Below, piece after piece: positions 26,864 through 28,645 of a DNA stretch of 64,000 bases. Source of the stretch: an uncultured Ectothiorhodospiraceae bacterium. GTDB taxonomy: Bacteria; Pseudomonadota; Gammaproteobacteria; S012-40. Made by a program: the position numbers and the translations under genes. Position 1 is the stretch's first letter. The number at the start of each line of letters is the position of its first letter. The stretch is taken from positions 6,088 to 70,087 of the forward strand of contig CALZJE010000003.1 in assembly GCA_945787715.1 (NCBI GenBank). The letters are read 5' to 3'. The notes under the pieces are model-generated. The model worked only from the letters and a program-made list of their open reading frames with translations. It did no database searches and had not been told where the DNA came from.

Positions 26864-27694
26864 ATGATAATGTTTGAAGATGGAGATTACGATGATTTAC
26901 GTGAGGAAAAGTTTCTGAACTGGCCAGAAAGGAACAGACCTCCACGCCTAAAAAGTCGGATTGCTGCCCTACATCGTTCTTATTCGCCTGATCCAGTAGG
27001 TCGGGTTCAGCGTAATAACTCAATACGATCAAAAGATGATATGGTGGAATTTAATTTTTCAGGTTTAGAAGTAGACGGATTTATTTCACGAGAGGTAGAA
27101 GATGAACAGTTTCTAAATTATTTATGGCCATTCTCATCAGATCCCAATATTGTGGATCGCACAGCTTATTCACCTAAGTCTAAGCGAAAGAAAATTCGAG
27201 ATATTGATACAGTTTATGCACTGGTTTTACATCAAGCAGGCTTTAGTCGTGGAAATGATCCTAAAAAATATAATAATGTGACTTCTCATTTTGTCATTAT
27301 GCCAAACGGAACTATTCTTCAACTCCACCCTTTGACTGCCTATTTATATTCTTCCAATGGGTTTAATCGGGGTAGTGTAGCTGTTGAATTTATCGGTAAT
27401 TTTCCTAGCGAGCGTGGCAGATGCTGGAAACCTGAAAAGTATGGTTGTAATCAGGTTTCAAACGATCAAATTGAGGCAGGTCGACAATTAATTAGATATT
27501 TAAGGAAAAAAATAGGGCTGACTCACGTGTTGGCGCACCGTCAATCGAGTGGTTCGAGAGGCAATGATCCGGGGCCAGACCTTTGGCACCAAGTTGGGCA
27601 ATGGGGTGTAAATAAGCTAGGGCTAAATGATGGGGGGCATGGTTTTAAAATTCAGTCGGGTAAGGCAATTCCTGATTCATGGCGTAAAACTTAG
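26864..27694 (+). CDS. N-acetylmuramoyl-L-alanine amidase, amidase_2 / PGRP / AmpD fold
   Basis: YALVLHQAG…SHFVIMPNGTILQL…AVEFIGNF…HVLAHRQSSGSRGNDPGPDLW matches the AmpD/T7-lysozyme Zn-amidase signature. There is an ~85-aa N-terminal extension and no signal peptide. RBS AGGAGGGA. Confidence 0.7.
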   Translation: MIMFEDGDYDDLREEKFLNWPERNRPPRLKSRIAALHRSYSPDPVGRVQRNNSIRSKDDMVEFNFSGLEVDGFISREVEDEQFLNYLWPFSSDPNIVDRTAYSPKSKRKKIRDIDTVYALVLHQAGFSRGNDPKKYNNVTSHFVIMPNGTILQLHPLTAYLYSSNGFNRGSVAVEFIGNFPSERGRCWKPEKYGCNQVSNDQIEAGRQLIRYLRKKIGLTHVLAHRQSSGSRGNDPGPDLWHQVGQWGVNKLGLNDGGHGFKIQSGKAIPDSWRKT

Positions 27695-27730
27695 ATCGAA
27701 AAACCATTAAATATAATCATTGAAGGAAAA

Positions 27731-28645
27731 TTGGTGAGAGATATGAGGTCTTATGAAGAACTAAGTAGAGTTTCCCATGAAAATGGCAAAGATAAAGAGT
27801 TTTATTATAAGTCGAAGGTTAGACCGGTTTCTAATTCTATGGGTGATTTTAGTCAACAGGAAATTGTTGACGATTTTGACGATAGAAAAAGACTTGGCAG
27901 TATCAAAGATACACCTTATAGGTGGATATGCATGCTGGATTTGCACACAAAAAGTGGATTATTTGGTGGGACTGGAGTACTCATTTCCCCCAGACACATT
28001 CTTACGGCTGGGCATAACCTAGATGGTTGTAATAAAGTAGTAGTGGTGCCTGGAATTAATGGTCGCTTCAAGCCATTTGGAAGTTACGAATCTACAACGA
28101 TGATTGCCCACGATAAATGGAAAAAACATAGAGACGATAATTTTGATATTGGCATGATAAAACTTTCCAAACCGGTTGGGAATCAAAGGTTTAATTCAAT
28201 AAAGGGAAATGTTCTGGGTCATTGGGGACATTCTGCTTTCGGAATGGGTACGAGAATTATACCATTTGTGCAGAGCAATCAATTAAACAAAAAAGCAAAT
28301 ATTGCTGGTTATCCAAGTGATAAAGGATTTACGCAGCTTTGGTGGGATGCGGGTAAAATTGTCAATACCGCGCCTGCCAAAGCATCAGGAGCAATCTATT
28401 ACACTATGGATACATGTGGTGCTCAAAGTGGAAGTCCAGTTTGGTTAAGAAGTAAAAGTTCAGGAGCAAGATTTTTAATTGCTATACATAGTGGTCCATG
28501 TTTATTAGATGGCTCAGATTGCAAAGAATTATCTGGAAAGCTTTGTCCCGGTAGTAGTTTACGTAAACCACACTCTTCTAATATGGGGGTATTTTTAACA
28601 GCGGGACTAATTAAGACGATTAGAAGTTGGATTCGCTCTATGTAA
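27731..28645 (+). CDS. Trypsin-fold serine protease, S1B (V8 / glutamyl-endopeptidase-like)
   Basis: Catalytic triad contexts are LTAGHNL (His), DIGMIKL (Asp) and GAQSGSPVW (Ser; compare the V8 protease GNSGSPV). There is an N-terminal ~60-aa pro-region and no signal peptide. Confidence 0.65.
   Translation: MVRDMRSYEELSRVSHENGKDKEFYYKSKVRPVSNSMGDFSQQEIVDDFDDRKRLGSIKDTPYRWICMLDLHTKSGLFGGTGVLISPRHILTAGHNLDGCNKVVVVPGINGRFKPFGSYESTTMIAHDKWKKHRDDNFDIGMIKLSKPVGNQRFNSIKGNVLGHWGHSAFGMGTRIIPFVQSNQLNKKANIAGYPSDKGFTQLWWDAGKIVNTAPAKASGAIYYTMDTCGAQSGSPVWLRSKSSGARFLIAIHSGPCLLDGSDCKELSGKLCPGSSLRKPHSSNMGVFLTAGLIKTIRSWIRSM

Follow-up and report, generated by a model that had tools for sequence, protein, structure and literature searches.

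The window analysed here, a stretch of 64,000 nucleotides from contig CALZJE010000003.1 of an uncultured Ectothiorhodospiraceae bacterium, carries two adjacent genes encoding an N-acetylmuramoyl-L-alanine amidase and a V8-like serine protease, which a preliminary description of this DNA had presented as a pair acting on peptidoglycan. These two genes are the variable end of a larger unit that had been missed there, a conserved five-gene operon accompanied by the gene of a sigma-54 activator. The cassette as a whole, composed of a sigma-54 promoter, P1 (in one to three copies), P2, P3, a payload and a convergent activator gene, is conserved and horizontally mobile. With a probability of roughly 0.5, we interpret it as a module for lysis or release under tight control, analogous in its working to a holin-endolysin(-disruptin) cassette or a type 10 secretion system but assembled from unrelated parts. 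The features on which this interpretation is founded are those evident from the sequence: (i) the operon structure, (ii) the sigma-54 promoter with its activator, (iii) the conserved core, (iv) the signal-less, apparently wall-directed payload, and (v) the charge architecture of P1.

Distribution and genetic organization of the cassette

A genome scan performed with the alignment of P2 revealed relatives of this protein (50-58% identity) in at least 400 species representatives, belonging to the Pseudomonadota, Acidobacteriota, Planctomycetota, Verrucomicrobiota, Chloroflexota, Nitrospirota, Methylomirabilota, Calditrichota, Myxococcota, Desulfobacterota and Deinococcota, plus one actinomycete (Nocardiopsis). 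Eighty loci were kept for the locus counts. In 75 of 76 loci the gene immediately preceding P2 is P1 (one to three paralogues per locus, with at least two copies in 47), and P3 directly follows P2 in 75 of 75; the same gene order was found around the amidase orthologues of Microbulbifer and Palleronia. No relative of P2 was detected in IMG/VR or among GenBank phages, and phages contained no close relative of the amidase, so a phage origin of the cassette was rejected. The plasmid collection yielded only four matches, all to P3 and all on very large plasmid records (1.5-2.8 Mb). Full-text searches of the literature gave no description of the cassette, and the paper of the Aravind laboratory on conflict systems does not cover it; the cassette is widespread and apparently undescribed.

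The amidase and protease genes of the window are the final two of a single plus-strand operon, P1-P2-P3-amidase-protease (22908-28645), in which P1 and P2 overlap by 4 nt and the following intergenic gaps measure 11 nt (P2-P3), 37 nt (P3-amidase) and 36 nt (amidase-protease). No convincing internal terminator was found inside the operon. For three genes, alternative starts have to be considered: ATG 23633 for P2 (437 aa, identical to database protein P0241), ATG 26870 for the amidase (274 aa, database protein P0001), which is favoured by a ribosome-binding site AGGAGG at 26857-26862, and GTG 27734 or ATG 27743, besides TTG 27731, for the protease. The features of the cassette are collected in Table 1.

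Table 1. Predicted features of the cassette, with positions in the window
Feature	Position	Strand	Basis
Candidate enhancer region (upstream activating sequence, UAS)	22486..22668		repeat search
Sigma-54-type -24/-12 promoter-like site TGGCATTCATTCTGCT	22837..22852	+	GG-N10-GC spacing
P1, 239 aa	22908..23627	+	open reading frame (ORF)
P2, 440 aa; candidate maturation metallopeptidase	23624..24946	+	HExxH...ExxxD motifs
P3, 622 aa; Ig-like N-terminal domain and all-alpha domain	24958..26826	+	ORF
Payload 1: signal-less Amidase_2 N-acetylmuramoyl-L-alanine amidase, 276 aa	26864..27694	+	Pfam, PHROG, family alignment
Payload 2: signal-less V8-like (S1B-like) serine protease, predicted zymogen, 304 aa	27731..28645	+	Pfam, PDB sequence matches
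Sigma-54 enhancer-binding protein, 449 aa; convergent to the operon	28736..30085	-	Pfam

With a G+C content of 0.41-0.43, higher than the 0.36-0.39 of the flanks, the cassette looks like an acquired island, and its position between ntrC and trmL-like genes is consistent with this. The former gene encodes a canonical NtrC-type response regulator (471 aa; 20892-22307, plus strand) and ends 600 nt upstream of P1; its adjacency is not kept in other loci with the cassette. Just past the trmL-like gene, on the minus strand, a 400-aa ORF (31102-32304) specifies an Asn/Asp/Glu-rich protein with a lipoprotein-like N-terminus (…FALISCGG). Searches with Rfam (20-32 kb) and for tRNA genes (whole window) identified nothing.

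Probable sigma-54 control and the dedicated activator

The promoter-like site of the window is placed 56 nt upstream of the P1 start codon, and in the closest relative (L087) the sequence TGGCATCTATTCTGC occupies the same position. In the 400 nt preceding the first P1 gene, a -24/-12 site with a score of at least 13 is present in 71 of 76 loci (93%), compared with 3.3% of random windows taken from the same loci; with a score of at least 14 the values are 58% of loci and 0% of the control windows. Between 170 and 350 nt upstream of the window's site, there is a candidate UAS region, consisting of a 26-nt element in two direct copies (22486-22511 and 22599-22624; core GCRATATGAAAAG) and an inverted copy of the core (22657-22668). 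The 10-mer core has three occurrences in the 64-kb window, two of them in this region.

The activator gene encodes a protein with a Sigma54_activat domain (E-value 3.1e-56), in which the Walker A motif (GETGTGKE) and the GAFTGA loop are both intact, and a C-terminal HTH_8 domain. Its N-terminal domain (approximately 120 aa), which has no match in Pfam, is the presumed sensor, and the protein may bind the UAS repeats. In most loci an orthologue of the activator (40-51% identity) forms the end of the cassette and usually points towards the operon: such orthologues are present in 13 of the 16 loci with at least 8 kb of downstream sequence, and 11 of these are convergent. Judged by the promoter and the activator, the cassette is probably under sigma-54 control exerted through a dedicated enhancer-binding protein.

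Several cassettes carry their own rpoN gene, for example those of Palleronia, Nocardiopsis, an Anaerolinea metagenome-assembled genome (MAG; L050) and two other Chloroflexota MAGs (L024 and L060). In Nocardiopsis sp. YSL2 (L084, GCA_030555055.1; 4212-12110) the gene order is P2, rpoN, a P1-like gene, P3, amidase and convergent activator, and the rpoN product (437 aa) contains Sigma54_CBD and DBD domains. Actinobacteria are generally considered to be devoid of sigma-54, and for this reason the Nocardiopsis cassette seems to import its own sigma factor.

A variable slot for wall-directed enzymes

The region between P3 and the activator gene differs in content from locus to locus. A Pfam census of 76 ORFs from this slot in 43 loci identified PG_binding_1 (30 ORFs), PG_binding_3 (15), OmpA (8), Trypsin_2 and Trypsin (6 and 5, respectively), VanY, Amidase_2 and M20 (4 each), CHAP and DUF2272 (2 each), as well as M23, 3D, Glucosaminidase, PLD and Peptidase_C1 (1 each). 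A weak match to SLT (E-value 0.003) was obtained when single payload proteins were searched separately. Fusion of the payload enzymes to PG_binding_1 is frequent. By an in-house Kyte-Doolittle hydrophobicity rule, applied to every in-frame start, no N-terminus resembling a signal peptide was found among 128 payload-region ORFs, and signal-peptide-like or transmembrane-like segments occur in 69 of 170 flanking ORFs. On these grounds, the slot is predicted to accommodate swappable, wall-directed enzymes that are made without export signals. The expectation of the preliminary description, that cell-wall-directed enzymes under sigma-54 control would need a non-classical route to the murein, is supported by the payload census, the promoter, the activator and the missing export signals.

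The pairing of amidase and protease as a functional unit, which the same description had proposed, did not hold. In a BLAST search of the 80 scanned loci the amidase was found in 6 and the protease in 11, and no locus carried both, which indicates that the two are interchangeable payloads and that their pairing is incidental. The closest relative, L087, whose P3 is 78% identical, contains the protease alone, and in Pelagibius (L088) an unknown 392-aa protein accompanies the protease.

The fullest cassette found, on a metagenome scaffold (L086; 3057-16169), has the order P1, P2, P3, an aminotransferase-like gene, a gene for a protein with two PG_binding_1 domains and a VldE domain, amidase, Peptidase_M15_3, a split M20 gene, Amidohydro_2 and activator, and so combines three wall hydrolases with three metabolic-type enzymes in a single operon. 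Occasional payloads are not directed at the wall: a PLD-like phospholipase (E-value 9e-14), a papain-like Peptidase_C1 (9.5e-13) and weakly matching GIY-YIG and HNH proteins.

The amidase

The assignment of the first payload to the zinc amidases of the PGRP/T7-lysozyme fold, made earlier from its motifs, was confirmed. The catalytic domain (residues 119-238; nt 27218-27577) matches Pfam Amidase_2 (PF01510) with an E-value of 4.4e-12 and 46.9 bits against a curated cutoff of 26, and the two motifs originally quoted were found at residue 122 (LHQAG) and at residues 224-237 (AHRQSSGSRGNDPG). The predicted zinc ligands are H123, H225 and D235. Among 52 homologues H123, H142, E175, H225 and N234 are invariant and D235 is conserved in at least 90% (Cys in some), and the alignment to PGRP-SD and phage amidases spans the zinc-ligand and Glu positions. 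In PHROG the best match is to a family of endolysins (6.9e-12), and a PDB search with the family profile retrieved phage or prophage amidases (7f5i), the LysT endolysin (6fhg), PGRP-SD (2rkq) and AmiD (2bh7). AmpD was absent from the PDB relatives found by this profile, and an NCBIfam search with E-values up to 0.1 gave no match to an AmpD model. Many orthologues are fused to PG_binding_1, VanY or PG_binding_3. The protein is probably an active enzyme, as its conserved residues suggest.

The catalytic domain is preceded by an N-terminal extension of approximately 95 aa that ends with the motif EDEQFLN. In many orthologues an acidic-E-x-FLG motif stands before the amidase domain, as it does before the cationic helix of P1.

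Three further observations concern the amidase family. Its members possess an insertion, NFPSERGRCWKPEKYGC (27401-27445 in the window, residues ~180-194), with two frequently conserved cysteines; this segment (GRCWKPEKYGC) is missing in the phage amidase and PGRP aligned to the family and may form a disulfide or bind a metal. P0082 and P0084 are natural fusions of an amidase domain with a complete, C-terminal P1-like module (E-values 1e-14 to 1e-16 against the hidden Markov model of the P1 leader region); P0084 carries the JGI label 'DUF697 family'. In Okeania sp. SIO2C2 (L085; 5415-14865), a 67%-identical amidase domain is part of another cluster, which is devoid of P2, P3 and the activator. 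This cluster encodes, along with a Transglut_core protein and several unknown ones, a protein of 367 aa in which poly-Arg/Lys amphipathic stretches occur together with acidic repeats. Here, for a second time, a signal-less amidase is paired with a cationic/acidic protein.

The protease

The second payload was likewise correctly recognized as a V8-like S1 protease with a trypsin-fold triad. It matches Pfam Trypsin (E-value 2.2e-9; 37.9 bits against a cutoff of 20.6) and Trypsin_2 (31.5 against 27.6), and its nine top PDB sequence matches, all weak (E-values 2e-6 to 5e-4), are without exception glutamyl endopeptidases of the V8/SspA/GluBL type, including 6q12 (2.3e-6) and 1qy6 (3.8e-5). In PADLOC it matches only the generic trypsin-like parts of the LmuA and RT-Protease models. 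The triad is formed by H95, D139 and S233 (codon 28427-28429), the last residing in the motif AQSGSPV at residue 231; the 12 aligned sequences all share H95 and D139, and the 11 that are full-length, that of the window included, all have S233. His253 aligns with the histidine of the V8 S1 pocket (GIHWG) and is kept in 10 of 11 homologues. Judging from these residues, the protease is probably active. Since catalytic residues are conserved among the homologues of both payloads, the possibility that they are pseudo-enzymes was rejected.

Residues 1-44 (nt 27731-27862) are predicted to be a propeptide, with processing between Glu44 and Ile45 (QQE|IVDDFDDR in the window). Across the cassette homologues of the protease the junction consists of a Glu (present in 10 of 12 sequences) followed by [IV][IV]xxxD[TDE]R before the catalytic domain. 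The mature N-terminus of V8 is VILPNNDRHQ, and the junction resembles the mature N-termini of both V8 and GluBL; because of this conserved Glu|[IV] junction, the N-terminal extension is best read as a propeptide. From its sequence, the protein looks like a Glu-specific zymogen. SspA is a zymogen that is matured by self-cleavage and by the metalloprotease aureolysin (PMC12021127). A protease with this specificity would be well suited to the degradation of the Glu/Asp-rich propiece of P1, described below. Four homologues from other cassettes are fused to PG_binding_1, which indicates that the proteases, too, are aimed at the wall.

Both enzymes of the window have N-terminal extensions in place of a Sec signal, as had been noted before. 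Within the first 70 aa, the maximum 12-residue Kyte-Doolittle average is 0.38 in the amidase and 0.07 in the protease, so neither has a hydrophobic leader. Neither ORF is extendable upstream, since each begins at the first start codon after a stop, and a signal peptide at an alternative start was rejected for both by the same hydrophobicity check of the in-frame starts.

The conserved core proteins

P1 begins with a conserved sequence (MHDxDxT in the window; family consensus MHDxDRT), which opens an acidic propiece (residues 1-84) with a net charge of -34 (median -22 across homologues). This is followed by a conserved stretch, EEMELAAELLxVxxExELxxFLG (ELEYFLG in the window), and by a cationic amphipathic segment (residues 85-153; net charge +21), whose hydrophobic moment of 0.99 was reached by none of 1000 shuffled sequences (0.54 +/- 0.14). 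A glycine zipper lies at approximately residues 121-150, and the conserved C-terminal domain of the protein ends in GRWVRKGSSIILMGV (family pattern GRWxRRGxxIxLxG). Across homologues, the charge of the N-terminal part anticorrelates with that of the middle segment (rho -0.53, p 3e-4, n=42). P1 modules also occur in fusion with PG_binding_1 proteins and with amidase domains (P0082, P0084). No significant relative of P1 was detected in Pfam, PHROGs or PDB.

P2 contains the motifs H193-E-V-G-H197 and E233-I-I-A-D237, a gluzincin-like pair (HExxH with a downstream Glu, ExxxD) whose residues H193, E194, H197, E233 and D237 are invariant in 69 sequences; these motifs make it a candidate maturation metallopeptidase. 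P3 is composed of a variable, Ig-like beta-sandwich (residues ~1-117) and a conserved all-alpha domain (residues ~160-622), which has many invariant polar and aromatic residues and no PDB match. Neither P2 nor P3 has a relative in Pfam or PDB. Each of the two families comprises thousands of clusters at 90% identity, all annotated as 'hypothetical' and none with a Pfam domain, and P2 has 1141 representatives at 50% identity. Rosetta-stone fusions involving P2 were sought in the 50%-identity library without an informative result, the long matches being frameshifted or run-on metagenome translations.

No protein of the window's cassette has a transmembrane segment, and none reaches a 19-residue Kyte-Doolittle average of 1.6.

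Proposed mechanism and alternative interpretations

If the cassette is a gated lysis or release module, its action could proceed as follows. A signal would reach the N-terminal domain of the activator, upon which the otherwise silent sigma-54 promoter would open. P1 would be made as a self-neutralized pro-protein, with the acidic propiece masking the cationic helix and the glycine zipper. Proteolysis near the acidic-E-x-FLG motif would then unmask P1, the candidates for this step being P2 and, in the window, the Glu-specific protease, which would first have to activate itself at Glu44|Ile45. Unmasked P1 may permeabilize the cytoplasmic membrane and, possibly at a later stage, the outer one, thereby playing the part of a holin or disruptin without classical transmembrane helices. 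The amidase could now cut stem peptides from the glycan strands, while the protease would attack wall-associated protein or peptide links. The outcome would be lysis of the producer, or release of the cassette proteins together with the contents of the cell.

Several findings weigh against this interpretation. The best 19-residue Kyte-Doolittle average of P1 is 1.36, no cassette protein has a classical holin-type transmembrane helix, and glycine-zipper Pfam families are matched, weakly, by only 5 of 80 P1 homologues. P3, the largest and best-conserved protein of the cassette, is without a role in the model. In orthologues P0004, P0006 and P0012 the FLG motif lies between the PG_binding_1 and amidase domains, where a cleavage would split the binding domain from the catalytic one. 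The -24/-12 site of the window itself is weak (score 12) and, having two mismatches to the consensus, is by itself not beyond chance. Lysis also leaves unexplained the M20 peptidases and two genes that many larger cassettes carry, an aminotransferase-like one immediately following P3 (26 loci) and an Amidohydro_2 gene immediately preceding that of the activator (30 loci); these hint at small-molecule or muropeptide chemistry. Moreover, as the cassette is absent from phage collections, it has no ancestry link to lysis cassettes.

P1-P2-P3 could instead be a new machine for the delivery or activation of proteins, neither a holin nor one of the numbered secretion systems, that recognizes the acidic-E-x-FLG tag on P1 and on the hydrolases and moves or unmasks signal-less enzymes across the cytoplasmic membrane. 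We put this forward tentatively, as a possible but on the whole rather unlikely reading. The module would be portable between phyla because it carries along its own sigma-54 and activator.

According to another interpretation, which we regard as doubtful, the cassette produces an antibacterial cocktail (bacteriocin-like or necrotrophic), expressed by a sub-population and released for killing or feeding, so that lysis of the producer is not itself the purpose; the cationic fragment of P1 would permeabilize the outer membrane of neighbours and let the hydrolases reach their murein. The polymorphic payload, which swaps between close relatives in the manner of toxin repertoires, fits this, as do the occasional non-wall payloads (PLD, Peptidase_C1, and the weak HNH and GIY-YIG matches) and the resemblance of a polycationic amphipathic module joined with a hydrolase to outer-membrane-penetrating endolysins. 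The aminotransferase, M20 and amidohydrolase of the larger cassettes could process the released peptidoglycan peptides. However, among the 160 small ORFs of the payload regions just 2 have the appearance of exported proteins, both being doubtful antisense ORFs, and hence no immunity-like genes stand next to the payloads; the nuclease matches are single and weak (E-values 2e-4 to 7e-4); and with neither a secretion apparatus nor a signal, release would still require the lysis step proposed above.

It is improbable that the cassette is an abortive-infection or stress-suicide module, in which the activator would respond to phage infection or to damage of the envelope by setting off altruistic lysis ahead of the maturation of phage progeny. 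In favour of it, a silent sigma-54 promoter is a suitable control for toxic genes, the cassette moves between phyla, sometimes together with its own rpoN, and one locus adjoins a SocA_Panacea gene. The AAA+ and HTH (helix-turn-helix) part of the activator resembles RtcR/PspF-type regulators in PADLOC, but the match is confined to the AAA+ part of these models and no core protein matches any PADLOC model, so that a known defence system was rejected. A consistent defence-island context was not found, a transcriptional trigger is slow, and the effector mechanism would be the same as that of the lysis module, with the trigger as the only difference.

Still less can be said for a pathway in which P2, as leader peptidase, and P3, as modifying enzyme, would process P1 into a peptide or protein product, in the manner of a ribosomally synthesized and post-translationally modified peptide (RiPP) or a pro-toxin, with the hydrolases serving its release only; this is very unlikely. 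The one to three P1 paralogues directly upstream of P2-P3 are arranged as precursor genes are, the conserved ELxxFLG resembles a leader-core junction, the many invariant polar residues of P3 are enzyme-like, and an aminotransferase-like gene is often present; yet P1 is far longer than known RiPP precursors, its C-terminal 90 aa constitute a domain that is conserved, searches of P2 and P3 revealed no fold of a known RiPP enzyme, and no transporter is present.

Least probable of all is cytoplasmic, AmpD-like action, allowed for in the preliminary description, by which imported anhydro-muropeptides would be recycled or catabolized as a nitrogen source under sigma-54 control: it is in line with the lack of export signals on every cassette protein, with the ntrC gene adjoining the cassette in this window and with the aminotransferase, M20 and Amidohydro_2 genes of larger cassettes, but it is contradicted by the failure to match AmpD in NCBIfam or PDB and by orthologues and co-payloads with PG_binding_1, PG_binding_3, SLT, CHAP, 3D and glucosaminidase domains, whose target is polymeric murein, while the ntrC adjacency is not conserved elsewhere, no muropeptide permease was seen and P1 is left unexplained.

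Should the gated lysis or release module be real, it would be an undescribed, self-contained device for breaching the envelope, present in a large share of environmental bacteria (at least 400 species of about ten phyla, with thousands of metagenomic protein clusters), and P1, P2 and P3, each a large orphan family of proteins, would receive their first functional assignment. It would also represent a new mechanism by which signal-less wall hydrolases reach the murein, with a bearing on programmed lysis, on the release of public goods, DNA and toxins, and possibly on antagonism or phage defence. Sigma-54 and its dedicated activator would travel as a portable switch into lineages usually without sigma-54, including an actinomycete. 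For the design of enzybiotics, the naturally occurring combinations of cationic peptide and hydrolase would be of interest.

Comparison with known systems

With AmpD, the cassette amidase shares the Amidase_2 fold, the His-His-Asp zinc ligands and a cytoplasmic location when synthesized. It differs in being nearest to endolysins, PGRP and AmiD, in having no ampG/ampE context, and in its own insertion and N-terminal extension.

The polymorphic, swapping, wall-degrading payloads, some of them phospholipase- or nuclease-like, recall the Tae/Tge effectors of type VI secretion systems and colicin-like bacteriocins with lysis genes. Unlike these, the cassette lacks a secretion apparatus, a PAAR/VgrG/Rhs carrier and a neighbouring gene for an exported immunity protein, and it shows no domain architecture for receptor binding or translocation.

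The protease is comparable to the aureolysin-SspA (V8) cascade and to the glutamyl endopeptidases of Bacillus (PMC12021127; PDB 1qy6, 1p3c, 6q12) in its S1 fold, its Glu-specific best matches, its predicted propeptide, a His at the position of the S1 pocket, the predicted cut after Glu exposing Ile/Val followed by xxxD[TDE]R, and the presence of an HExxH protein in the same operon. In contrast to these enzymes, it has a predicted pro-region and no signal peptide, its similarity to them is low (E-value ~1e-6), and some of its relatives are fused to PG_binding_1. P2 is unrelated to aureolysin and other thermolysin-like M4 enzymes beyond the two motifs.

In the precursors of defensins and cathelicidins an acidic pro-region balances a cationic amphipathic segment, and activation occurs by proteolysis. 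P1 has the same balance of an acidic pro-region and a cationic segment, with charges that co-vary across homologues, and proteolytic activation would be expected; it differs in being bacterial and approximately 240 aa long, in its glycine zipper and conserved C-terminal domain, and in showing no sequence relationship to these peptides.

Phage lysis cassettes and type 10 secretion systems use signal-less peptidoglycan hydrolases that depend on a co-encoded membrane-active partner (PMC10847048, PMC10109510), and, like the cassette, they combine diverse hydrolases (amidase, VanY/M15, CHAP, SLT) with tight gating. A cationic amphipathic peptide as an envelope disruptor has its counterpart in the disruptin gp28 of phage phiKT (bioRxiv 10.1101/515445). 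The cassette departs from these systems in having no transmembrane holin or spanin (no PHROG holin or spanin match was obtained), in P1, P2 and P3 being without relatives in phage collections, and in its dedicated sigma-54 activator, putative membrane-active pro-form with an acidic propiece, and serine protease payloads. Without a holin, a spanin or phage ancestry, the cassette nevertheless appears, by its predicted components, to be functionally closest to phage lysis cassettes and type 10 secretion systems.

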